DNA of 64,000 nt from Verrucomicrobiia bacterium (GCA_035945675.1 DASZAB010000034.1:30255-94254), one strand, 5' to 3'. Positions 5,914 through 63,503 are shown, numbered from the stretch's first letter. Made by a program: numbers and translations. Notes: a model not told the origin generated them from the sequence alone.

Positions 5914-7284
5914 TCAGCGCATCAACTGCTTTTCGAGATAATGGACGACTTGCCGGACATTGGAATCCACTTCCATGCGGTCTTTCACGAGGCGGCAGGC
6001 GTGGAGGACGGTGCCATGATCGCGGCCGCCGAAGGCTTCGCCGATGGTATTGAGCGAGCTTTCGGTCATCTGGCGCGACAAATACATGGCCACCTGGCGC
6101 GGGAAGGCAATGTTTTCCGGGCGCCGCTTACTGGTCATGTCGGCGAGGCGGATGTCAAAATGTTCGGCCACACGCTTCTGGATGACTTCGATGCTGATGG
6201 AGAGGCGGCCTTCTTCATGGAGGATTTCGCGCAACAAACCTTCCACCACTTCGATGGTCAATTTCCGGCCGGTGAGCGAGGCGTAGGAAGCCACGCGGAT
6301 GAGCGCGCCTTCGAGCCGGCGGACGTTGGTGCGAATACGACTGGCGAGGAAATTCAAGATGTCCTCGGGCAGGGTGACCCCCATGAGTTGGGCCTTTTTG
6401 TTCAGGATGGCCAGGCGCATTTCGATGTCCGGCGGCTGCAGATCGGTGACCAGCCCCCATTCAAACCGGGAAACGAGGCGGTGTTCAAGATTCTGGATTT
6501 CGCTGGCCGGGCGGTCACAGGTGAGCACGATCTGCTTGTGCGCCTCGTGCAATGCGTTGAACGTGTGAAAAAATTCCTCCTGAATCCGTTCCTTGCCCGC
6601 CAGGAATTGGATGTCATCAATCAACAACACATCGGTTTGCCGGTATTTTTTGCGGAACCGGGCCAGTTGGTTGTTTTGAATGCCATCAATGTACTCGTTC
6701 GTGAACTTCTCGGATGAGACGTAGGCGACGCGCGCGCTCTTCTTGTTGCTGGCGACATACTGGCCGATGGCATGGAGCAGATGAGTCTTGCCCAGACCGA
6801 CTCCGCCGTAGAGGAAGAGCGGATTATAGGATTTGCCGGGGGCCTGGGCGACGGCCAGCGCGGCGGCGTAGGCGAAATTGTTGTTGTTGCCGACGACAAA
6901 GGTGTCGAAGGTGTTTTTGGGGTTGAAATTGATTTCCCCATTGTATGACGCGCGCTCGTGGCTGGACTCGGCGGCTCGGGTGGGTTTGGCTGGCGCTGGG
7001 GCGACGGGTGCGGAAAGCGCGTGGGCGCCGTTCCCGGCAGCAATTTTGAATTTGATTTGCACCTGGCGGCCGGCGGCGACAGTCAAGGCATCCTGCAACA
7101 GGCTGAGATAATTGTCTTTAAGCCAGACCTCGCAGAATTCGTTGGCCACCTCCAGAGTAACGCAGTTTGGATCAACCGCATTGGCACGCAACGGGGCGAA
7201 CCACATGTTGTAAGTGTCTGTATTCAACCTGGAACGAAGATGTTCCCGCGCTGAATTCCAAATTTTTTCTGCCGAAAGCTGCAT
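5914..7284 (-). CDS. dnaA: Chromosomal replication initiator protein DnaA
   Basis: AAA module GGVGLGKTHLL and LLIDDIQFL. C-terminal DNA-binding domain with PRQVAMYL and FGGRDHGTVLHA. Confidence 0.97.
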   Translation of the reverse strand: MQLSAEKIWNSAREHLRSRLNTDTYNMWFAPLRANAVDPNCVTLEVANEFCEVWLKDNYLSLLQDALTVAAGRQVQIKFKIAAGNGAHALSAPVAPAPAKPTRAAESSHERASYNGEINFNPKNTFDTFVVGNNNNFAYAAALAVAQAPGKSYNPLFLYGGVGLGKTHLLHAIGQYVASNKKSARVAYVSSEKFTNEYIDGIQNNQLARFRKKYRQTDVLLIDDIQFLAGKERIQEEFFHTFNALHEAHKQIVLTCDRPASEIQNLEHRLVSRFEWGLVTDLQPPDIEMRLAILNKKAQLMGVTLPEDILNFLASRIRTNVRRLEGALIRVASYASLTGRKLTIEVVEGLLREILHEEGRLSISIEVIQKRVAEHFDIRLADMTSKRRPENIAFPRQVAMYLSRQMTESSLNTIGEAFGGRDHGTVLHACRLVKDRMEVDSNVRQVVHYLEKQLMR

Positions 7285-7739
7285 TTGCGTTTTGTCAAAA
7301 AGCCCGTTTTTTAAGCGTTTTATTCACCTAGCCCTAAAATTGGCGTTTGACCTCGCCCGCCATGCTCACTTGCGCCACTTTAAACTTATTGTTTCGATAA
7401 AGCGTTTGCACGCACGCCCTTATATCATCGAAACCGCCGCACCAACATCAATGCAACACTTTGATTTGTAATATGTTGCGAATTATCAGACCGAAACTCT
7501 GATTCTGCGTCTTCTAAAACCATTGAAACGTCACGACCAACTTCTTGCTTACGCGAACTTTTTACGCAAATTCGCCGGACGTTTCTAGGACAACATATTA
7601 ACTTTTGTTCACGAGTTATTCACAACCGCCTGACCCCTGCGTAAAGCTAAATGATTTCACGATTTTACCAACGGTTTTATTCAATACAAAACTGGTTCTC
7701 AAACGAAAAATCTGCAATTTTATCCTTCCAAACTACGGT
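7285..7739. other. Putative oriC / dnaA promoter region
   Basis: 455-bp non-coding, visibly AT-rich spacer upstream of dnaA. TTATTCACA at 7616-7624 fits the TTATNCACA box. TTATTCACC at 7320-7328 and TTGTTCACG around 7605 are near matches. Confidence 0.5.
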
Positions 7740-8156
<417 letters not shown>

Positions 8157-8478: not shown

Positions 8479-8524
8479 AACGCCCGATTCAAACGGCCAT
8501 GCGGCGGCGATGCCATTTGGAAAT

Positions 8525-8603
8525 TTCGGTGGGCGGGTGTCCTCGCGAGCCGGCTCGTCAGGAGCCACGCCCCCCCAAAAATGTACTGTTACCGCCGACG
8601 CGG
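8525..8603 (+). repeat. Family A palindromic element, copy A1 (intergenic)
   Basis: GGTGGGCGGGTGTCCTCGCGAGCCGGCTCGTCAGGAGCCACGCCCCC plus shared flank AAAATGTAC..TACC. Homologous to the copies at 22144, 55646, 58070 and 61988. Confidence 0.8.
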
Positions 8604-8755
8604 CAGTAACCTGATTTGAGGTTTGGGTCCCGCGTTCACGCGGTCCCGGGCCGCCTAACGGCGGAACTCCGGGCAAATTCAGGACAGTACCGCCGCCGCG
8701 CGTTCGTTGACACTGATTTTCCCGGCTGTTAGCTTTGTTCCTTCTGAAAGTCACG

Positions 8756-11700
8756 ATGGACTACAAAAATACATTAAACCTGCCGCGCACCGATTTCCCG
8801 ATGAAAGCCGACCTCGTGGCCCGGGAGCCGGAACGGCTGAATCAGTGGGAAAAGACCGGGCTTTACCGGAAAATCCAAGCCGCCCGCGCCGGAGCCGGAG
8901 AAAAGTTCGTTTTGCACGACGGCCCGCCTTTTGCCAACGGCGACGTCCATATCGGCACCGCGCTGAACAAGATTCTCAAGGACATCGTTGTTAAATATAA
9001 GACCTTACGCGGTTTTAGCGCGCCGTATGTGCCGGGCTGGGATTGTCATGGATTGCCCATTGAATTCAAGGTTTCCCAGGAGATGCGCAAGGCGGGCGAT
9101 GCCAGCGCCGACGCCGCGACCATTCGCAAGGCCTGTGAAACGTACGCCCGGAAGTACATTGACATCCAGCGTGTGCAGTTCAAACGGCTCGGTGTGCTGG
9201 GCGACTGGGAGAATCCCTACCTTACGCTGAACAAGGAATACGAGGCCGAAGAATTGCGGTTGTTCGCCAACATCGTTGAGAAAGGCTTTGTTTATCGCGG
9301 GAAAAAGCCGGTTTATTGGAGCATTCCCTGCCGTACGGCGCTCGCCGAGGCGGAAGTGGAATACAAGGACCACGTCAGCCCGAGCATTTACGTAAAGTTT
9401 CCCGTTAGTGGCCGGGCAAACACCTTTGTGCTCATCTGGACGACGACCCCCTGGACGCTTCCGGCGAACCTGGCTGTCGCTTACAACGATAAATTCCAAT
9501 ACCTCCAGGTCGGAGTTGGTGGCGAAAAATACATTTTATTCCGTGGTTTGCTTCCGGTCGTCGCCGAAAAATGCGGCTGGGTAAATTACACGCAATCGCC
9601 TTTCCCGACCGAAGAGCTCGCCAGGTTGGAATACCAGCACCCCTTCATCCCGGCGCGTAAAGGCAAAGCCTACGCTGCCGATTTTGTTACCAGCGACACC
9701 GGCACGGGTTTCGTCCATATAGCTCCCGGCCACGGTCTCGAAGACTATGGCCTGGGCTCGTCCGTCGGTCTGCCGATTTATTCGCCGGTGGACGATGACG
9801 GCAAGTTCGCCTACACGAACGAGTTGCCCGCGGAGCAACAGATGCCAAAGGAAATGATCGGCAAATCGATTCTCGAAAAGCATGGCAAAAGTGACGCCAA
9901 TGAAGCGGTTTTGCACGAACTCCGCGCGCACCATGCCCTGCTGCACCAGGAAAATTATCATCACAGCTACCCGCACTGCTGGCGCAGCAAAACGCCCGTC
10001 ATCTTCCGCGCGATGGACCAATGGTTCATCGAGATTGACCATGTGCTGGAGGGCACTGCTTCGTCAGTGCCCGAACATTTGGGGCAGCGACGAAGCGCCG
10101 CCCTCCAGGGTGAAACCTTTCGCAGTATCGCCCTCGCCGAAATTGACCGCGTGAATTGGGTTCCCGACTGGGGCGTCAATCGCATCAAAGCCGCCGTTGC
10201 CACAAGGCCCGATTGGTGCATTTCCCGGCAACGCACCTGGGGCGTGCCGATTCCGGCGTTTTACGACGCCAGGGGTGAACCGATTCTCGATGCGCAAATC
10301 GTCCGCAACGCCGCCGATTTGATAGAGAAACACGGCTCGAACGTCTGGTTCGAGAAATCCGCCGTCGACCTCTGGTCGCTCTTGAAACCGGAAGGTTGGA
10401 AGGGCGCGGAAGCGGTTTCCAAATCCAGCGACACCCTTGACGTGTGGATTGATTCCGGCAGCTCGTCACGAAGCGTGTTGATGCGACGGGAAGAATTGCA
10501 TCATCCCGCAGGACAGGCTTCCCGCCTGTCTCCATCTGAGAACAGAAAGTCAGAGACAGCCAAGATGCCGGTCGTGCAATGGCAGGCCGACATGTATTTC
10601 GAAGGTTCCGACCAGCATCGCGGCTGGTTTCAATCATCGCTGCTGCTCTCGCTGGCGGGCAATGGCACGGCCCCGTTCAAAATGGTGCTCACGAGCGGCT
10701 TTGTCGTGGATGCGGATCGCGAGAAGATTTCCAAGAGCAAACAGGGCGGCTATGAAAAACCGCAGACCGCCGAGGCCTATGTGAAGAAATGGGGCGCGGA
10801 CATCGTGCGACTGTGGGTGGCCTCGCAGGATTATCGCAACGACATCATCGTGAGCGAGGAGCGCATCGCCAAGGTCGCCGAGACCTACCGCGTCATCCGC
10901 AACGCGCTGCGCTATCAGCTCTCGAATCTTTACGATTTCGATCCGGCCAATCATTCCGTGCCGGACGAAAAGCTGACCGGCCTGGATCGCTGGATTTTGG
11001 GCGAATTCTCGAAACTGGAGCAGGAAGTTATCCAGGCTTACGACAATTACGAATTTCATGTGGTTTACCAGAAGGTCAGCCAGTTCCTTGCCGTTGAGCT
11101 CTCGGCGATCTACCACGACGTCATCAAGGACCGGCTTTACACCGACCCGGCGAATTCGCAGCGCCGCCGCTCGACGCAGACCACGCTGCACCGGCTCGTG
11201 ACCGGCCTTTGCCAGATGCTCGCGCCGATTTTGTCGTTCACGGCGGACGAGGCCTGGGAATTTGTGCCGGGGAAGAAAGAAGATTCTGTTCACGAAGTGA
11301 CTTGGCAGCCGCAATCATTAAAATCCCGTGCAGGACAACCGGAAGCTTGGTCGCTTCTTTTTGAATGGAGAGATCGGCTTTTGCCGGAATTGGAAAAAAT
11401 GCGGAAGGACAAATTGATTGGCAAATCTTTGGAATCAAAAATCGCCATTCCCTTTGCCGGCAAATCAGAACAATTCGACTCGTTGAGTTTTGTTGGTGGC
11501 AACGTTCAATCCTTGAAAGAGCTTTTGAATGTTTCGCAACTTTCAATTTGGCAATCGGACGGTTCGCCAGCCCCCCAGGAGGCAGAAGGAATGTTTAGCG
11601 CGGAAGAATTGAATGCTGTGCATTCGAGTCGGGAAGGATTTGCGATTAAGGTTTTGCACGCCGACGGCCAGAAATGCGAGCGCTGCTGGCATTGGGAAAC

Positions 11701-11779
11701 GGATGTCGGCTCGAATCCGGAGCACCCGACCATTTGCGGGCGTTGCGTCGCGGCGGTGCTGCAAGCCAAAGCATCATAG
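8756..11779 (+). CDS. ileS: Isoleucine--tRNA ligase (type 1, C-terminal zinc finger)
   Basis: HIGH region [16 protein letters not shown]-like [16 protein letters not shown]-terminal CERCWHW..CGRC. ATG at 8756 ([16 protein letters not shown]). Confidence 0.97.
10049..10105 (+). repeat. In-frame palindromic insertion 1 in ileS
   Basis: 17-nt imperfect inverted repeat GAGGGCACTGCTTCGTC / GACGAAGCGCCGCCCTC, 57 nt in total. Encodes [19 protein letters not shown]. The segment is absent from the E. coli IleS sequence as I recall it. Confidence 0.7.
10508..10579 (+). repeat. In-frame hairpin-repeat insertion 2 in ileS
   Basis: Perfect hairpin GACAGGC-ttccc-GCCTGTC (10512-10530) plus a decayed second arm GAGACAGCCAAGATGCCGGTC. 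Encodes [24 protein letters not shown], just before the GSDQHRGWF motif. Confidence 0.65.
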
Positions 11780-12667: not shown

Positions 12668-13807
12668 TCAACCTTGCGCCGGCTGCTGCTGCGTGAGGCA
12701 GTGCAACGTACCGCGACCGAGAACCAGGTCCACCGCGTGGAGGCCCACGACCGGCCGGTCTTTGAACAGTTCGCCCAAAATCCCCAGGGCAAGGCGGTCG
12801 TTGGGATCATTAAATGTCGGGACCAGGACGGCGGCGTTGCCGATGTAGAAATTTGCATAGCTCGCGGGCAAACGTTGGCTGTCAAAATAAAGCGGCGACG
12901 GCATGGGCAGCTCGACCACCTCCGGCTTGCCGCCGTCTTCCAGCCGTAGATCCCGGATGCGCTCCCGGTTTTCGGCGAGCGGGCGGTAATTCACGTCTTT
13001 TGAATTTTTTTCGCGCACCAGCACAAGCGTCCTGGGATTAACGAAGCGGCAAATGTCGTCAATGTGCCCGTGGGTGTCATCGCCGACCGGGCCCTTGGCC
13101 AGCCAAAAGACGTTCCGGACACCAAGATAATTTTTCAACGTCTTCTCGATTTCTGTTTTGCCGAGGCCGGGATTGCGGACCTGGACTTTAGGATCGAGGT
13201 AACATTGCTCCGTTGAGAGCAGCGTGCCGCGGCCGTTCAACTCGATGCCGCCGCCTTCAATGACGAATGGCCGGCCGTGGCATTCGGCGTGAAAAAGTTT
13301 CATTCGCAAAATGCGCGCGGCGGTCTCGGGCACTTTTGCGTCCTTGCGCCAGTTGCGGTATCTGGCCCAGCCGTTGAAATGGAAATGAACGATGGCGGTC
13401 TCGGTTTTGCCCTCACCCGGCCTCCGGCCACCCTCTCCCATCGGATGGGAGAGGGACAGGGGTGAGGGTCGTTTGACAAAAATCGGGCCGCTATCGCGCA
13501 TCCAGCTCCGATTCGTCGGGTGCACGGTAAACCGGATTTTCTCCAAATTGCAGCCGGCGCACTTGAGGATTCGGCGCGCAGAATTTTCCTCGGCTTGGTG
13601 GCGGACGAGAATGCAAACAATTTCACCCGGGGAAATTTTTCGCACCATTTCACCATAGACCCAGGGAATAACGGCGAATTTGCCCGGCCAGTCGCTGGCG
13701 TTATGCGGCCAGCTGAGCCAGGTGGCTTCATGCGGTTCCCATTCTGCCGGCATCCGGTAGCCCAGGTCGGCGGGAGTTGCTGTGTTTGCGGATTGCAGGT
13801 TCACCAT
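12668..13807 (-). CDS. aguA: Agmatine deiminase (PAD_porph family)
   Basis: YRMPAEWEPHEATWLSWP, RDSGPIFV, FNGWA, DDTHGHIDD, and C-terminal GTLHCLTQQQP with the catalytic Cys. ATG at 13807 chosen. Confidence 0.85.
   Translation of the reverse strand: MVNLQSANTATPADLGYRMPAEWEPHEATWLSWPHNASDWPGKFAVIPWVYGEMVRKISPGEIVCILVRHQAEENSARRILKCAGCNLEKIRFTVHPTNRSWMRDSGPIFVKRPSPLSLSHPMGEGGRRPGEGKTETAIVHFHFNGWARYRNWRKDAKVPETAARILRMKLFHAECHGRPFVIEGGGIELNGRGTLLSTEQCYLDPKVQVRNPGLGKTEIEKTLKNYLGVRNVFWLAKGPVGDDTHGHIDDICRFVNPRTLVLVREKNSKDVNYRPLAENRERIRDLRLEDGGKPEVVELPMPSPLYFDSQRLPASYANFYIGNAAVLVPTFNDPNDRLALGILGELFKDRPVVGLHAVDLVLGRGTLHCLTQQQPAQG
13410..13468. repeat. In-frame palindromic insertion in the agmatine deiminase gene
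   Basis: Perfect 12-bp arms CCCTCTCCCATC / GATGGGAGAGGG, nested in CCCTCACC..GGTGAGGG. Encodes PSPLSLSHPMGEGGRRPGEG between the conserved RDSGPIFV and FNGWA motifs. Confidence 0.75.
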
Positions 13808-14047
13808 AAAGGTGCGCCGAGCATAATCACCTGGCCCGCTCTCGGAAATCTTGAAACGCCGTTCACTGGCTGGAGCAGCAGGGTTTACAGGGGGGATTGG
13901 TTGAGCTTCCAACCATTATAATCGCCCACATTACGAATTAGTTCAAATGAAATATTTTTAAAAAAGTGACAGTGATCGGGTGCAAATCCACCTCCCTTGA
14001 ACGACCATAAATCAGGAACAGCGATTGCTCACAACGGTCTCGCTCTT

Positions 14048-21247: not shown

Positions 21248-21312
21248 CGGATCCGATGAACTTCACAATAACGTGACTTGCCTTGACAGCGATCCACGTC
21301 AATCCTTGTTGC

Positions 21313-24036
21313 GTGAAAGGCAAATCGTTCATCCACCTTGGAATTATTGTGCTGGCCGCGCTCGGCTTTCATTGTTTTGGCGGTGATTTCGACCAGACCA
21401 CCGAAATCGTCGGTCGTAACCCCAGCGGCTTTGAAACGCCGGTCAATCAACTCGTCACGCCCGCCGGAACGCCCGTCGAACTTCCCGGCCTGCGGCCGAA
21501 TGCACTCGCACTGAGTCCGGACGGCGAACGGCTCGTGACCGCCGGCCTGACGCAACGACTGATCGTCATCAATCCGGCAACCGGAACAATCCTGCAGCGC
21601 GTGCGGTTGCCCGCCGACGACAAAATTCCGCAGGCCGGATCCGTTTCCAGCGGCATTCTCCAACCGAACGAGAAGGCCAAGCTCAGTTTCACCGGCCTCG
21701 TCTTTTCGCCTGATGGCTCACGGATATACCTGGCCAACGTCAACGGCGACATCAAGGTTTTCAGCGTTGACGCGGACCATAAAGTCACGCCGTTGTTCTC
21801 CCTTCCGCTGCCGCCGGCCAACGCGCCGTTGCGCCAGGCCGAAATTCCGGCCGGGATCGCCGTTTCTTCAGACGGCAGGGAGCTTTACGTTGCCGGCAAC
21901 CTTTCTAATCACCTCCTTGAACTCGACGCCGTGACCGGGAAAGTTCTGCGGACTTGGGACACAGGTGTTGCGCCTTTCGATGTCGTCCTCTGCAAAAATA
22001 AAATTTATGTGAGCAACTGGGGTGGGCGGCGGCCGGGCCCGGACAGCCTGACCGGTCCGGCCGGCAACGGCATGAGGGTGCGTGTGGACGCGCGTTCCAT
22101 TGCCAGCGAAGGCTCGGTCTCGGTGATTGATTTGACAGAAGCTGGTGGGGCGAGCGTCCTCGCGAGCCATGGCAACGAGGGCTCGTCGGTAGCCTCGCCC
22201 CGCCCAATCCAGGAACTCCGGACCGGTTTGCATGCCTGCGCCCTGGCGTTAGCGCCCAATGGCCGTTGGCTGGTCGTCGCCAACGCGGGCAGCGACACGC
22301 TGAGCGTGATTGACACGCGGACGGACAAAATCTTCGAGACGATCTGTGCGCGGCAGAACCCGGCGGATTTATTTGGCGCGCAACCCAACGCGCTGGCCTT
22401 CGATAAAAAAGGCAAAACCCTGTTCGTTTGCAACGGCACCCAAAATGCCGTCGCCGTTTTCCGCTTCCAACCCGGCAAATCCAAATTGCTGGGCCTGATA
22501 CCCGTCGGCTGGTTCCCCGGTTCCATTGCGTATGATGCGAAGCGGAAGGAAATTTACGTGGCGAACATTAAAAACCTCAGTCCGGGGATTCGAAGTCACA
22601 CCGGCGAAACGGAGTTCAATTCCAAGGAATATTATGGTTCTCTGTCGCTCGTGCCAGTGCCGTCGAAAAGGGAATTGGCCAGGTTCACCCGGATTGCGCT
22701 GGCGGATTTGCGTTATCCGCTGCTCGCGCAGGCTGCGTTGCCGGCGCGACCCGATCAACCGTCGCGGCCGGTGCCGGAGCGGGCTGGCGAGCCGAGCGTT
22801 TTTCATCACGTCATCTACATCATCAAGGAAAACCGCACTTATGATCAGGTTCTGGGCGATGTCAAGGAAGGCAACGGCGACGCGAATTTGTGCACGTTCG
22901 GCGAGGCCGTCACTCCCAACCAACACAAGCTCGTACGCGATTTCGTGCTGCTGGACAACACGTACTGTTGCAGCATCCTCAGCGCGGACGGCCATCAATG
23001 GGCGGACACAGGCATCGCGATGGATTACGTGGAGCGCGGGTTTGCCGGCTGGCCGCGCAGCTATCCGGCGGGCGGTTTTGGCGAGGAAGGCCGGGACGCG
23101 CTGGCCTATTCACCGGCGGGTTTCATCTGGAACGACGCGCTCGCGCACGGCAAAACGGTTTGTGATTTCGGGGAATTCACCACCGCTCACAAACAATGGA
23201 AGGATTCCCGCCGCAAAGGTGAACCGGATTTTCTCGATTGTTACCACGATTTCCTGGCCGACTCGAATGCGATTGCCTATGCCTGCGAGCCGGACATCGA
23301 GGCGCTGCAACCTTATCTCATGACGAACACGATTGGCTGGGATTTGGACGTGCCGGACATCTGGCGCGCCGCGCAATTCGGCAAAGACCTGAAACAATTT
23401 GAAGCGGCAGACAATCTGCCAAATCTGGTCATCCTCTGGTTGCCGAACGACCACACCAGCGGCACCGCGTTCGGTTCGCCCACGCCCGCGGCGCAGGTGG
23501 CGGACAACGACCTGGCGGTCGGGCAGGTGGTCGAGGCTGTCAGCCACAGCAAGTATTGGAAGGACACGTGCATTTTTGCGGTGGAAGACGATCCGCAGAA
23601 CGGCTGGGACCACGTGAGCGGCTACCGCACCACCGCCTACGTCGCCAGCGCCTATACCCGTCGCGGCGCCGTGGTCAGCACCCAATACAATCAGACCAGT
23701 TTGCTGCGCACGATGGAACTCATGCTCGGGTTGCCGCCGATGAACCAGATGGATGCGACGGCCACGCCGATGTTCGATTGTTTCACCAACACGGCGGACT
23801 TCACACCGTTTACCGCCGTGGCCAACCAGACGCCGCTCGACCAAATGAATCCACCGCCGAAGAAAATTTCCGACGCGCGGCTGCGCAAGGACGCCTACGT
23901 ATCCGCGCGCTTGCCGCTCAAGAAGGAAGATCAATGCCCGGAAGACGTGTTCAATCGCATCTTATGGGATGCGACCAAAGGTCCGCAGACGCCGTATCCG
24001 GTCTGGGCGGTCAAAGCGCTGGATGACGATGATTGA
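21313..24036 (+). CDS. Secreted YncE-like beta-propeller fused to a phosphoesterase (phospholipase C / AcpA family) domain
   Basis: GTG 21313 gives the signal peptide KGKSFIHLGIIVLAALGF. Propeller repeats (LSPDG, FSPDGSRIYLAN, SSDGRELYVAG). Phosphoesterase motifs VIYIIKENRTYDQVLGD, LPNDHTSG, VEDDPQNGWDHV. Confidence 0.85.
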   Translation: MKGKSFIHLGIIVLAALGFHCFGGDFDQTTEIVGRNPSGFETPVNQLVTPAGTPVELPGLRPNALALSPDGERLVTAGLTQRLIVINPATGTILQRVRLPADDKIPQAGSVSSGILQPNEKAKLSFTGLVFSPDGSRIYLANVNGDIKVFSVDADHKVTPLFSLPLPPANAPLRQAEIPAGIAVSSDGRELYVAGNLSNHLLELDAVTGKVLRTWDTGVAPFDVVLCKNKIYVSNWGGRRPGPDSLTGPAGNGMRVRVDARSIASEGSVSVIDLTEAGGASVLASHGNEGSSVASPRPIQELRTGLHACALALAPNGRWLVVANAGSDTLSVIDTRTDKIFETICARQNPADLFGAQPNALAFDKKGKTLFVCNGTQNAVAVFRFQPGKSKLLGLIPVGWFPGSIAYDAKRKEIYVANIKNLSPGIRSHTGETEFNSKEYYGSLSLVPVPSKRELARFTRIALADLRYPLLAQAALPARPDQPSRPVPERAGEPSVFHHVIYIIKENRTYDQVLGDVKEGNGDANLCTFGEAVTPNQHKLVRDFVLLDNTYCCSILSADGHQWADTGIAMDYVERGFAGWPRSYPAGGFGEEGRDALAYSPAGFIWNDALAHGKTVCDFGEFTTAHKQWKDSRRKGEPDFLDCYHDFLADSNAIAYACEPDIEALQPYLMTNTIGWDLDVPDIWRAAQFGKDLKQFEAADNLPNLVILWLPNDHTSGTAFGSPTPAAQVADNDLAVGQVVEAVSHSKYWKDTCIFAVEDDPQNGWDHVSGYRTTAYVASAYTRRGAVVSTQYNQTSLLRTMELMLGLPPMNQMDATATPMFDCFTNTADFTPFTAVANQTPLDQMNPPPKKISDARLRKDAYVSARLPLKKEDQCPEDVFNRILWDATKGPQTPYPVWAVKALDDDD
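22144..22205 (+). repeat. Family A palindromic element, copy A2, in frame inside the phosphoesterase CDS
   Basis: GGTGGGGCGAGCGTCCTCGCGAGCC..GGCTCGTCGGTAGCCTCGCCCCGCCC, translated as GGASVLASHGNEGSSVASPRP. Confidence 0.85.
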
Positions 24037-54100: not shown

Positions 54101-55756
54101 TTATTTTTCCAGGTTGTATCTGACGAAATCCAGGTCGGCGGTCCCCCCATTGGGCCCGTAGCAAAACAATGCCAGCCGCGCACCCTTCCATTTGCCGAAC
54201 TTCAATTCCACCGCCAGTCCGGTGTCGGTGTAGTGTTCGCCATCGGTACTGTAGAACAGTCGCGCCTCCTTCCCATGGTACTTGCCCCGGAACCATACGT
54301 CAGCGCCCTTTAACACCGGGCCCGCGCCATTTTCCAAGGCGATTCGCCGCACTCCGTCGCTCTGCGTTACCCCAACCCAGTCAAACCTGTCGCCGCTCAT
54401 AAAGGCAAATCCGGTGCATTGGTTTTCCGCCATGGCGCTGACATCGAACTTTGTGTCAATGAGGCCGTCCTGTCCCAACAATTTTTCGGTCAGGGTGTTG
54501 TGGGCGGTGGACAGGCCGGAGGCGGGCAAGGCGTTGAGTCGCAGCCAGCCGGGCCGGGCCGTCAGTGACCAGGAGTCATTCATTGGGTTGTGGTTCCATT
54601 GCCAGATCGGAGACAGCACCGGATCGTCGAAATCGTCGCTTCTTTGTGGATGATGAATGGGAGAAGGCCGTCCGACATAAGGTTTTTTCCATCGGTCCAC
54701 CGACTGGCCGTGATCGCCGAACACCGGCCAGTCATCTGTGCCCCAGGTGACCGGCATCAGGTAGGTGATACGTCCAAGGAAACCGCTGGATTTGAAGCAC
54801 AGAAACCACCATTGACCATCAGCCAGTTCCACGAGCGCGCCTTGATGCGGACTGCCATCAGGCAACACCACCCGCCGTTCGTACGGGCCATAAATATTGG
54901 TGGAACGGAGCATCGTCTGGCCGCCCGTGCCGACGCCGCCTTCCGGAAGGGATATGTAATACCAGCCGTTCCGTTTGAAGAGTTTTGGGCCTTCCGCCGT
55001 CGGGCCGTGATAAATTTCAACACCGTCATCCAGCAATCGCACCCCGTCCGGGCTCATGCGGTGCAGAATCAATGGGCCGGCACCCTTGAGACTATGAATG
55101 AGGTACGCCTGCCCGTCGTCATCCCAGAACGGGCAGGGATCTTCCCAGCGTTCCACGGCCCGAACGGTGAACGTTCGCGACCACGGCCCGGCTGGATTTT
55201 GGGCGTGCCACATGAATAAACCTTCGGACGGAGTACAGACGAAGACGTAATAGGTACCGTTGTGATAACGCAAGGTCGGCGCCCACGTCCCCTCACCATA
55301 GCCGGTCAGGTCATCGTACTTTGGCGACATGCTCAACCGGTGGAATACCTGGCCGATGACTTCCCAATTGACGAGATCGCGCGAATGCAACACCTGCATG
55401 CCGACGAAGTGAAAATCCGACGCGACCAGATAAAAATCGTTCCGGACGCGAATGACGTCAGGATCGGAATAATCCGCGGGCAGGACCGGATTTCGATAGG
55501 TGCCGTCGCCCTGGTCACCCCAGCTCAGTGGCGATTCGGCGGGAATGGCCGGCGGGGCCGGTTGACTGGCGGCGGTAAAGCTCATCATCATGATGCCGGT
55601 AAAAAGCGAAATGGCGCCTTTTCGGGTGAAAGTATATTCCGCAACTTTCGGTGGGGCGAGCGTCCTCGCAAGCCGGCTCGTCAGTAGCCTCGCCCCATCA
55701 AAATGTACCACTACCCGTTTCCATAGGGCGCGGATGGTTTGGGACCGGTTTACCAT
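54101..55756 (-). CDS. Glycoside hydrolase family 43 protein with C-terminal beta-sandwich domain
   Basis: YRNPVLPADYSDPDVIRVRNDFYLVAS, WAPTLRYHNGTYY, EGPKLFKRNGWYY (GH43 blades). The start is uncertain (55756 or the MMM at 55591) because a family A repeat lies in the 5' part. Confidence 0.85.
   Translation of the reverse strand: MVNRSQTIRALWKRVVVHFDGARLLTSRLARTLAPPKVAEYTFTRKGAISLFTGIMMMSFTAASQPAPPAIPAESPLSWGDQGDGTYRNPVLPADYSDPDVIRVRNDFYLVASDFHFVGMQVLHSRDLVNWEVIGQVFHRLSMSPKYDDLTGYGEGTWAPTLRYHNGTYYVFVCTPSEGLFMWHAQNPAGPWSRTFTVRAVERWEDPCPFWDDDGQAYLIHSLKGAGPLILHRMSPDGVRLLDDGVEIYHGPTAEGPKLFKRNGWYYISLPEGGVGTGGQTMLRSTNIYGPYERRVVLPDGSPHQGALVELADGQWWFLCFKSSGFLGRITYLMPVTWGTDDWPVFGDHGQSVDRWKKPYVGRPSPIHHPQRSDDFDDPVLSPIWQWNHNPMNDSWSLTARPGWLRLNALPASGLSTAHNTLTEKLLGQDGLIDTKFDVSAMAENQCTGFAFMSGDRFDWVGVTQSDGVRRIALENGAGPVLKGADVWFRGKYHGKEARLFYSTDGEHYTDTGLAVELKFGKWKGARLALFCYGPNGGTADLDFVRYNLEK
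55646..55722 (+). repeat. Family A palindromic element, copy A3 (inside the 5' part of the GH43 ORF, inverted relative to the gene)
   Basis: TTTCGGTGGGGCGAGCGTCCTCGCAAGCCGGCTCGTCAGTAGCCTCGCCCCATCAAAATGTACCACTACC. Near-identical to A1, including the flanks. Confidence 0.85.
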
Positions 55757-61157: not shown

Positions 61158-63296
61158 TTACTTCCTCGTCCGCTTCAATTTTTTATAACTCACCGGCTTC
61201 GCTTCCGGTTTTTCGCCGTTGACCATGCGTTTCAATTCCTTGATCTGGTCGCGGAGCAGGGCGGCTTTTTCAAATTCCAGCTTTTCCGCCGCTGCCAGCA
61301 TTTCGGTTTCGAGTTCGCTGATGGTTTCCGTCAGGTCCACGTCCATTGCGGCATCTTTCAGGACGGACGCGCCGGCTTCGCGTTTCGATTCGTAAACGGC
61401 CAGGCTTTCTTCAACCGCGCGGCTGACGCTGCGGGGTGTGATGTTGTGTTCCGCGTTGTAAGCGATTTGTTTTTGGCGGCGATATTCGGTCACGGCCAGA
61501 AATCTGTTGATGCTGTTCGTCATCACGTCGGCATAGAGAATCACCTCACCGTGCAAATGCCGCGCGGCGCGGCCCGCGGTCTGGATCAAACTCGTTTCAC
61601 TGCGCAGAAAACCTTCCTTGTCCGCGTCGAGGATCGCCACCAATGAAACTTCCGGCAAATCCAGACCTTCCCGCAACAGGTTGATGCCGACGAGCACATC
61701 GAATTCGCCTTTGCGGAGCGAACGCAAAATCTCCACGCGCTCAATGGCGTCAATCTCACTGTGGAGATACTGGACGTTGACGCCGATGCCGCGCAGGTAA
61801 TCGGTCAGTTCCTCGGCAGTGCGTTTGGTGAGTGTCGTTACAAGGATGCGCTCCTTCGCCTCGGCACGTTTGCGGCATTCCTCGATCAGATCGTCGATCT
61901 GGCCTTTGAGCGGTTTGAGCGTGACCTTGGGGTCGATCAGACCGGTGGGGCGCACCACGAGTTCGACGACGCCCGGCATTTGTTGGTGGGGCGAGGCTAC
62001 TGACGAGCCGGCTGTTTCGATTCGGCTCGCGGGGACGCTCGCCCCACCGTTCGATTCGGCTCGCGGGGACGCTCGCCCCGCGGTGGCACTTTCCCGCGAC
62101 CATTCCAGTTCGCGTTTGGCCGGAGTGGCGCTGACGTAAATCGTCTGGCCTTGCATTCCTTGAAATTCCTCGAATTTCAGCGGGCGATTATCCAGCGCAC
62201 TCGGCAGGCGGAAACCGTACTCAACCAAAACGGTCTTCCGCGAGCGGTCCCCTTCGAACATCGCGCCGATTTGCGGGACGGTCGCGTGAGATTCATCAAT
62301 CACCAGCAGGTAATCGTTCGGAAAAAAGTCAATGACGGTTGCCGGGCGCGAGCCGGGCGGGCGTCCGGCGATGTGGCGCGAATAATTTTCGATGCCGGAA
62401 CAGACGCCCATCTCCTCCATCATCTCCAGGTCGAATTCCGTGCGCTGCTTGATGCGCTGGGCTTCGAGCAGTTTGCCATTCTTTTCAAACCAGACGATGC
62501 GCTCGCGCAATTCCTCGCGGATGGCGAGAGCGGCGCGCTTCATCTTGTCGGCGGTGGTGACAAACTGCTTTCCCGGGAAAATGGTCACGGCGTCGAGCGT
62601 TTCGGTTTTGTTTCCCGTCAACGGATCGAAACGGGTGAGCCGCTCGATTTGCTCGCCGAAAAATTCGACGCGCAGGCCGTCTTCGCGCCCCGCTGGCCGG
62701 ACTTCCACGGTGTCACCGCGCACGCGGAAATGGCCGCGTTCGAACGCGATGTCATTCCGGTCGTACTGCAAATCCACCAGGCGCGCGAGGAGTTGCTCGC
62801 GCGAGATTTCCAGGCCGACGCGGATGGGAATGACCATCGCTTCGTAATCTTCCTTGCTGCCGATGCCGTAAATGCACGACACGCTGGCAACGACGACGAC
62901 ATCCCGGCGCGAGAACAGCGAACTCATGGTTGAGAGCCGCAGTCGCTCGATTTCTTCGTTCCGGCTGGAATCCTTCTCGATGAATGTGTCCGTGCGCGGG
63001 ATGTAGGCTTCCGGCTGGTAATAATCGAAGTAACTGACGAAGTATTCGACGGCGTTGCGGGGAAAAAATCCCTTGAACTCGGCGTAAAGCTGCGCGGCCA
63101 GTGTTTTGTTGTGGGAAATGACCAGCGTGGGTTTGTCCACGTTTTTGATGACGTTGGCGATGGCGAAGGTTTTCCCGGAGCCGGTGACGCCGAGGAGCGT
63201 CTGGTGTTTTGCGCCCGACAAAATGCCATCGGTCAGCTTCGCAATCGCTTGCGGCTGGTCACCGGCGGGCTGGAAGGGCGCGACGAGTTCGAACAT
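61158..63296 (-). CDS. uvrB: Excinuclease ABC subunit B
   Basis: GVTGSGKTF, DESH, YVSATP, VRPTGL, LREGLDLPEV, GRAARH, C-terminal UVR domain EKAALLRDQIKELK. ATG 63296. Confidence 0.97.
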   Translation of the reverse strand: MFELVAPFQPAGDQPQAIAKLTDGILSGAKHQTLLGVTGSGKTFAIANVIKNVDKPTLVISHNKTLAAQLYAEFKGFFPRNAVEYFVSYFDYYQPEAYIPRTDTFIEKDSSRNEEIERLRLSTMSSLFSRRDVVVVASVSCIYGIGSKEDYEAMVIPIRVGLEISREQLLARLVDLQYDRNDIAFERGHFRVRGDTVEVRPAGREDGLRVEFFGEQIERLTRFDPLTGNKTETLDAVTIFPGKQFVTTADKMKRAALAIREELRERIVWFEKNGKLLEAQRIKQRTEFDLEMMEEMGVCSGIENYSRHIAGRPPGSRPATVIDFFPNDYLLVIDESHATVPQIGAMFEGDRSRKTVLVEYGFRLPSALDNRPLKFEEFQGMQGQTIYVSATPAKRELEWSRESATAGRASPRAESNGGASVPASRIETAGSSVASPHQQMPGVVELVVRPTGLIDPKVTLKPLKGQIDDLIEECRKRAEAKERILVTTLTKRTAEELTDYLRGIGVNVQYLHSEIDAIERVEILRSLRKGEFDVLVGINLLREGLDLPEVSLVAILDADKEGFLRSETSLIQTAGRAARHLHGEVILYADVMTNSINRFLAVTEYRRQKQIAYNAEHNITPRSVSRAVEESLAVYESKREAGASVLKDAAMDVDLTETISELETEMLAAAEKLEFEKAALLRDQIKELKRMVNGEKPEAKPVSYKKLKRTRK
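61988..62083 (-). repeat. Family A element, copy A5, with a 34-nt tandem re-duplication of one arm, in frame inside uvrB
   Basis: GGGGCGAGGCTACTGACGAGCCGGC..TCGATTCGGCTCGCGGGGACGCTCGCCCC occurs twice. Translated as ATAGRASPRAESNGGASVPASRIETAGSSVASPH. Confidence 0.85.
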
Positions 63297-63503
63297 GCGA
63301 AATGAAGGTAGAAGCGGAACCAACGAGAGTCAATGAAGCGCCAGCCCGGCTCTAAAGTCTGGCAGGGCGCGTCACTCCGTGCGCGCCGTGGGCCCCGTAC
63401 GCCGGCAGGCAGGGGACCGCCCGTCCTGCCCAATTTGAAATCAGGCCTCCGATCCACCTCGGAGCTTCTCTTTATTGGAAAATCTGATTAGACTCCTTGT
63501 CCA

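Follow-up and report, generated by a model that had tools for sequence, protein, structure and literature searches.

The two superfamilies of REPs (repetitive extragenic palindromes) known as GTAG and CGTC were defined by Di Nocera et al. (2013; PMC3733652); in the first of them a GTAG tag stands at the foot of a short stem-loop with a stem of 5-13 bp and a loop of 2-20 nt (Table 1 of that study). The same authors found that intragenic REPs are mostly dimers encoding 20-30 amino acids (aa), that the verrucomicrobium Opitutus terrae and R. conorii have the largest numbers of them, that some genes are hit twice and that tRNA synthetases are among the targets; one CGTC-1 dimer lies in the isoleucyl-tRNA synthetase (IleRS) of Erythrobacter litoralis (ELI_13550, residues 467-488). 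REP doublets forming hairpins (REPINs) and their association with REP-associated tyrosine transposases (RAYTs) were defined by Bertels and Rainey (2011; PMC3116915), and the classic case of palindromic DNA in frame is that of the Rickettsia palindromic elements (RPEs; Ogata et al. 2000, 2002, as summarised in PMC10969869). Here we describe a 64,000-nt stretch of DNA from a Verrucomicrobiia bacterium (GCA_035945675.1 DASZAB010000034.1:30255-94254), hereafter the window, in which the IleRS gene ileS carries at positions 10508-10577 a 70-nt segment that, judged by its sequence, is a decayed REPIN of the GTAG-tagged superfamily.

We consider it very probable that this segment is the relic of a REPIN that inserted in frame into a loop of the enzyme and has been tolerated there as selfish DNA. 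A non-autonomous element, in which two GTAG-tagged REP hairpins stand in inverted orientation and which a RAYT transposase (IS200-like, Y1/HUH) mobilises as single-stranded DNA (ssDNA), would have landed in a very short IleRS loop between helix 570-576 and the strand that precedes the motif GSDQHRGWF. Read in a stop-free frame (GTA-GGA-CAG...), it would yield the peptide VGQASxLS...ETGxxPVL, so that the essential enzyme would merely have gained a flexible loop of ~23 residues. Alleles of the loop would then pass between related strains through short patches of homologous recombination. At present the insert most likely has no function.

The inserted element in ileS and its family

The ileS gene (8756-11779, + strand) encodes a type 1 IleRS that is 100% identical to a 1007-aa database protein (P0001), contains the Pfam domains tRNA-synt_1, Anticodon_1 and zf-FPG_IleRS and matches the solved structure 8c9e with E = 2e-230. 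The mechanically called open reading frame (ORF), 8735-11779, opens at a TTG at 8735; the ATG at 8756, which agrees with the database protein, is the likely start. Alignments made with phmmer to solved IleRS (8c9e, 1ffy) broke at ORF residues 435/461 and 592/615, exactly at the two insertions pointed out in the initial annotation of this DNA. The element lies ~12 codons upstream of GSDQHRGWF, and the segment from WxDSG to that motif, 62 aa long in the window, measured 28-45 aa (mode 36) in the 108 of 150 diverse IleRS representatives in which the motifs could be recognised. By alignment, the ileS segment is a true insertion into a linker that is short in most IleRS, as the initial annotation had held.

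That annotation had described the site as a perfect hairpin followed by a decayed second arm, together encoding 24 aa. The hairpin, GACAGGC-TTCCC-GCCTGTC at 10512-10530, was exactly as described; the second arm, GACAGCC-AAGAT-GCCGGTC at 10555-10573, is indeed decayed, with two stem mismatches; and the peptide is encoded in frame in the ileS ORF. What had been seen as a hairpin plus an arm is, by contrast, a single 70-nt head-to-head REP doublet (10508-10577, + strand like all its parts) whose outer tags have decayed as well. Its 5′ REP unit (10508-10530) comprises the tag GCAG and the perfect 7-bp stem with its 5-nt loop, and its 3′ unit (10555-10577), in inverted orientation, ends in the tag GTGC. 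Between them lies the spacer TCCATCTGAGAACAGAAAGTCAGA (10531-10554), delimited by the alignment described below (A2) and a within-element consensus, in a surrounding frame, TCTCCATC...TCAGAGA, that is common to other family members. The two units are mutually inverted (10508-10532 and 10553-10577 are 76% complementary). Intact members of the family have the architecture GTAGGACAGGC-N5-GCCTGTC ... GACAGGC-N5-GCCTGTCCTAC, from which the tags of the window copy have mutated, GTAG to GCAG at the 5′ end and CTAC to GTGC at the 3′ end; GCAG still fits the GYAG variants of PMC3733652. In frame, the element encodes 23 aa, that is, residues 592-614 of the ORF, and the Q of the 24-aa peptide corresponds to the codon that runs into flank bases 10578-10579.

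Taken alone, the 7-bp hairpin is weak. Such a hairpin is expected a few times per 64 kb and the local 111-nt RNA fold gave a z of only -1.5, values that would also suit a chance hairpin in a variable linker or an assembly artefact. A pattern search of the window returned two matches, namely the two units of the ileS element, against 0.27 expected, a number equalled in 2 of 100 shuffles. The whole 70-nt element folded as ssDNA at -14.4 kcal/mol, a value that only 1 of 200 shuffles attained (z = -3.2), a residual long hairpin when compared with the -22.2 kcal/mol of an intact copy in the ortholog L020. What makes the REPIN identity conclusive is homology along the whole element to intact REPINs from elsewhere. 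In alignment A2 it aligned over its full length with copies at the same site of ileS (L020, L004, L017), with a copy at another ileS site (L051), with copies in other ORFs (L083, L134) and with intergenic copies (L098, L198), and since the similarity ended exactly at GTAG and CTAC, the element is fixed at 10508-10577. The suspicion that the segment derived from a hairpin repeat was thus borne out by its full-length homology to a dispersed family of GTAG-tagged REP doublets. L203, a Logan assembly made independently and 99.8% identical to the window across 4.8 kb, showed zero mismatches in the element, which means that the window sequence is real, and a homologous copy is present in the closest relative, L201. 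With this homology and these independent copies, the probability of chance or artefact is practically negligible. An intein, an intron and a variable region of a diversity-generating retroelement were also considered and rejected, the element being 70 nt long, always in frame, palindromic and part of a dispersed family.

When metagenome contigs were scanned for exact matches to GTAGGACAGGC-N5-GCCTGTC, at least 120 contigs had them. Of the 132 elements among the matches listed, 34 were doublets arranged head-to-head and 98 stood singly; 73% of the 132 lay outside long ORFs and 27% inside stop-free stretches. Near-identical copies occupy non-homologous sites, a pattern consistent with mobility, as is the large excess of element identity over that of synonymous sites given below. 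In one ortholog, L016, a sister family occurs three times, at the ileS sites called B and C below and in a third gene. Regarding the transposase, a Y1_Tnp gene (PF01797, E = 8.6e-9) on contig L194 is flanked by GTAGGAyAGGC REPs of the same family at 216-238, 701-723 and 812-834, and on a 6.5-Mb Verrucomicrobia chromosome (L066) REPs of the sister GTAGCGCAGGC family flank a Y1_Tnp (PF01797) RAYT. A further RAYT-like ORF matched by regular expression (L173) was dropped for want of Pfam support. On contig L200 (10509-13448, - strand), the frame of a RAYT-like ORF continues, with no stop codon, into a REPIN of the GQAS family lying downstream (...VVGQVSCLSQTKKEISQKSETGATPVLR...), and an apparent stop-free stretch of 980 aa results. 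By these comparisons the family has the traits of GTAG REPINs: a tagged stem-loop, inverted doublets, dispersed and mostly extragenic copies, and a RAYT flanked by the same REP. The multi-copy, mostly extragenic dispersal holds for the family as a whole, the genome of the window being represented by its 64 kb only.

A second insertion, insertion 1, lies upstream in the same gene (10046-10108, + strand). It is a palindrome of another family with 30-nt arms (80% complementary) that encodes 21 aa, is absent in solved IleRS and folds as ssDNA at -25.8 kcal/mol (z = -5.7). The gene therefore does contain two independent repeat-derived inserts, as had been proposed. To call this unusual was an overstatement: double occupancy is the rule in the clade, with 63 distinct combinations of the two sites among 121 sequences, and precedents exist in PMC3733652.

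Occupancy of the insertion site among orthologs

We gathered 120 IleS proteins of Verrucomicrobiota (72-100% identity) and 80 genome loci from the Genome Taxonomy Database (GTDB). The ileS orthologs showed five length-variable hot spots, with insertion 1 at hot spot B and the REPIN at hot spot C, where the WxDSG-to-GSDQHRGWF segment ranged from 41 to 72 aa. For site C, 199 sequences were classified (119 database proteins, 79 GTDB loci and the window; protein and locus sources may overlap). No insert (RPELRGQDKPFQCD type) was found in 36 of them and a short loop in 22; 40 had 7-nt tandem repeats in 3-4 copies (TCCGCAA, CTCAACC and others), ~93 had palindromic inserts belonging to at least 11 unrelated families, and 8 were long and unclassified. 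The window's family (VGQAS[RS]LSPS...ETGxxPVL) accounted for 24 of the palindromic inserts. The ortholog alignment, proposed in advance as the test of a hairpin-repeat origin, revealed no conserved domain at the site: what stands there is a palindrome of one of several unrelated families, a set of 7-nt repeats or no insert at all.

Three orthologs (L004, L017, L020) carry, at the codon that the insert of the window occupies, a near-perfect palindrome of 67-70 nt, CAC-AAC-GTAGGACAGGCTTCCAGCCTGTC-TCCATCT...TCAGA-GACAGGCAAGATGCCTGTCCTAC-AA-TGG, and intact palindromes of this type fold as ssDNA at about -22 kcal/mol (z about -9). Other site C families, among them GTAGCGCAGGC..., GTAGGGCGCGC... and GTAGGGATGCG..., share the architecture. 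The reading frame is kept in every insert-bearing ortholog. One of the three frames of a GTAG element holds a TAG stop, and a second frame of the family's ileS copies meets a TGA or TAA in the spacer; preservation of the frame, together with the stops in the others, argues that the insert is translated and not removed. Judged by its sequence, the segment behaves as an in-frame palindrome: stop-free, within a conserved gene and absent from orthologs.

The 7-nt units that fill site C (in L005, L008, L011, L015, L025, L030 and others) were TCCGCAA, TCCGCAC, CTCAACC, AATCGGA and ACTCAAG. Three copies make 21 nt, so the frame is kept. A scan that covered the GTDB loci, L201, L202 and the window, 1.4 Mb of sequence bearing ileS, found 80 arrays of 7-nt units; none of these tandem arrays lay in the window.

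So diverse an occupancy could also reflect targeted turnover in situ, in which a resident GTAG...CTAC element offers RAYT cleavage sites, families are swapped at the same codon and the IleRS loops act as exchangeable cassettes. All the GTAG-tagged families at site C begin at one nucleotide (CAY-NNN-GTAG), which favours such targeting, but non-GTAG families enter ileS one codon earlier or later, and neither a target-site consensus nor a duplication was found beside GTAG, with no consensus 5′ of the tag in 177 units. No remnant of a longer ancestral loop was seen beside the elements, again as in-situ exchange would have it; yet the ancestral loop may span only 3-5 codons (L059, L072, L080), in which case the positions open to a tolerated in-frame insertion can differ by no more than about one codon, and the TAG inside GTAG rules out one of the three frames. 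The turnover is another point in favour of exchange: ortholog pairs at least 95% identical, with the hot spots masked, always shared the site C family, and at 5-10% protein divergence its identity was lost, 86% of the pairs in the 90-95% band differing, equal to random pairs. The same palindrome families also recur at hot spots A, B and C, the window's family itself being the one found at site B in L051. Against this stands the fact that recombination patches, described below, already account for the mosaic distribution, and we regard in-situ turnover as improbable. A broader form of the idea makes a few IleRS loops in Limisphaerales/Pedosphaera-like Verrucomicrobiota into landing pads, where REPIN families would be swapped by RAYT exchange at GTAG sites and the cassettes would then spread by recombination. 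This we think quite improbable; if true, REPINs would be turned over in a way not described before, by which the surface loops of essential proteins are rewritten continually.

Decay, recombination and the enzyme

Between distant hosts, intact elements were 93-97% identical, against 54-69% at flanking third codon positions (pairs with L016, where the motif match spanned site B through site C, were left out). The window copy was 81-88% identical to intact copies. Its closest relative, L201, is syntenic (dnaA - P-II - ileS - Trx - PAD) and carries the homologous copy of the element. Between window and L201 the core of ileS gave a nonsynonymous divergence (dN) of 0.014 and a synonymous divergence (dS) of 0.149, whereas the element differed at p = 0.217, with dN 0.199 and one codon indel, its dN being ~14 times that of the core. 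Different stems and tags have been broken in the two lineages. The window copy is no longer a competent element and drifts without constraint at the level of DNA or protein.

These figures bear on whether the palindrome is kept in ileS for a nucleic-acid role: as a hairpin in the mRNA it might make translation pause between domains or stabilise the transcript, or it might be a DNA-level signal. The conservation of intact copies between hosts, which far exceeds that of synonymous sites, would agree with such a role, as would the view that intergenic REPs act as RNA elements (PMC3733652). However, the same sequence is found in unrelated genes and in intergenic DNA, the 36 orthologs without an insert and others with non-palindromic 7-nt repeats do without it, and in the lineages of the window and L201 the hairpins are being lost at least as fast as neutral change would have it. 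A permissive Rfam search of the site gave no match, and a terminator and promoter scan at the insert found nothing, with no terminator-like T-run. We therefore judge a nucleic-acid role very unlikely.

Evidence of exchange between lineages came from a second relative, L202 (~88% nucleotide identity), which has an empty site C allele within a ~150-nt patch (10445-10595) whose divergence far exceeds that of the remaining gene. The element at site B, on the other hand, differs at 1 of 75 nt among the window, L201 and L202, though the core dS between window and L202 is 0.53. Taken together, the diverged patch and the near-identical element indicate short recombination patches. Around the site B element, the region 9995-10145 is near-identical in all three sequences, which suggests a recent recombination patch carrying insertion 1 between co-occurring lineages; L201 and L202 come from one sample, 3300082197. 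Further downstream, in the C-terminal region of ileS with hot spots D and E (11279-11660), ~60% of positions differ between window and L201, against an identity of ~97% in the rest of the gene, as if a cassette had been replaced, or a stretch imported by recombination, in the tRNA-binding part at the C-terminus.

We then placed the inserts on a predicted structure. The AlphaFold (AF2) model was built from a diverse alignment (A4), since a shallow alignment of close orthologs (A1) gave a predicted local distance difference test score (pLDDT) of 47.9 and was discarded; model numbering is the ORF residue minus 7. The model reached a pLDDT of 91.6 and a predicted template modelling (TM) score of 0.90, and matched solved IleRS1 structures (8c9e/8c9f) with TM 0.91-0.92. 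The insert at site C corresponds to model residues 585-608, between helix 570-576 and strand 611-617 (ADMYFEG), which leads into GSDQHRGWF. The ten-residue blocks 591-600 and 601-610 had mean pLDDT of 56 and 72, against 94-95 for flanking blocks. The insert at site B (model residues 430-454) had block means of 59 and 47 and contained the sole run of at least 3 residues with pLDDT below 50. In the model, both inserts are the lowest-confidence excursions from an otherwise normal IleRS fold. General Rossmann-fold topology would put a loop that enters this strand at its N-terminal end on the side of the fold opposite the active site.

The insert might instead be a lineage-specific functional loop of the protein, contacting for example tRNA or a partner, with the palindromic nature of its DNA incidental. 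Its constant frame and its position in the catalytic domain, near GSDQHRGWF in sequence, are what such a loop would show. Yet orthologs have unrelated sequences or none at the site, the insert has the raised dN and low pLDDT given above, and none of the solved IleRS or of the 108 diverse representatives has it. A functional loop is accordingly extremely unlikely.

Several points weigh against our preferred explanation, that of a tolerated REPIN relic. The preserved reading frame is the sole ground on which translation of the insert is proposed, and pLDDT and secondary structure are those on which the loop is placed in the model. A pattern search of the 64-kb window found no further copy of this REP family and a screen by regular expression, the only one applied, found no RAYT-like ORF there, so that activity of the family in this genome is at most putative. 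The strong DNA conservation of the intact copies could reflect selection on structure instead of recent insertion. Finally, the divergence of the element between window and L201, 0.217, is somewhat above the synonymous level, and hairpin-driven mutation, selection against hairpins or allele exchange may add to drift. As probable steps of the explanation we propose that a RAYT mediated the insertion in this lineage, that the insert is translated and that it is neutral for enzyme activity.

Other palindromes were observed in the window. A gene related to PAD_porph/agmatine deiminase (12671-13915, - strand) contains at 13406-13468 an in-frame palindromic insert, CCCTCACCC...CTCTCCCATCCGATGGGAGAG...GGGTGAGGG, encoding PSPLSLSHPMGEGGRRPGEGK; the insert is present in the L201 ortholog, and L202 has a shorter PNSELRTP instead. 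A further palindrome family (GGTGGGGCGAGCGTCCTCGCGAGCC...GGCTCGTC.GTAGCCTCGCCCC) has four copies, two of them intergenic (8524-8579 and 55646-55703) and two within ORFs, at 22144-22204 in ORF 21277-24033 (+ strand) and at 61985-62048 in ORF 61161-63329 (- strand). The two copies within ORFs read GGASVLAS...GSSVASP and are candidate insertions. As to the neighbourhood (5914-8078 and the flanks of ileS), the order dnaA - P-II (glnB-like) - ileS - thioredoxin-like - PAD_porph - NosD-like is kept in L201 and L202; given this conserved dnaA gene order, the window adjoins dnaA and may lie near the replication origin.

Comparison with described elements

The element is closest to the GTAG REPs and REPINs (Nunvar 2010; PMC3116915; PMC3733652), with which the family shares a tag beside a stem of 7 bp and a loop of 5 nt, doublets arranged head-to-head that have their tags outward and fold into a long hairpin, many dispersed and mostly extragenic copies, and RAYT genes flanked by the same REP. 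The window copy differs in being a decayed relic, with GCAG and GTGC as tags and a broken 3′ stem. The stem GACAGGC was not found by term searches of the supplementary tables of PMC3733652; the family consensus sequences of its Figure 1 were not compared. That study has already published REP dimers in frame, among them double hits in single genes and one case in an IleRS. What it does not report is a clade in which the same three loops of IleRS repeatedly carry members of at least 11 families as well as 7-nt repeats, together with recombination patches.

Like the RPEs, the element is palindromic selfish DNA found in frame; RPEs lie in unrelated and often essential genes, their translated extra peptide is judged compatible with the fold, and they are absent from orthologs (PMC10969869). 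They differ in that the first described, RPE-1, is longer (~150 bp, PMC10969869) and has no described RAYT association, and in that their host is an obligate intracellular alphaproteobacterium; here the element is a 70-nt GTAG REP doublet in a free-living lineage of Verrucomicrobiota.

No new kind of system is thus revealed. Hot-spot turnover and cassette-like recombination are the only parts that we did not find described, and we consider them moderately new. The finding explains odd low-complexity peptides (GQASRLS...TGxxPVL) in essential proteins of Verrucomicrobiota as probable translated REPIN relics and not domains, to be masked in phylogenetic and structural work. Moreover, ileS of this clade offers a dense natural experiment, in which three to five loops have each sampled more than 10 families of selfish elements and intact, decaying and empty states occur along with recombination patches; these loops could be used to measure rates of REPIN insertion, decay and replacement as well as the tolerance of an essential enzyme to loop insertions.

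In Escherichia coli, the presence, absence and type of the REP cluster, or bacterial interspersed mosaic element (BIME), vary between strains at one chromosomal site. Those sites are intergenic, whereas here the polymorphic site is a loop of a protein, so that only in-frame, stop-free states survive.

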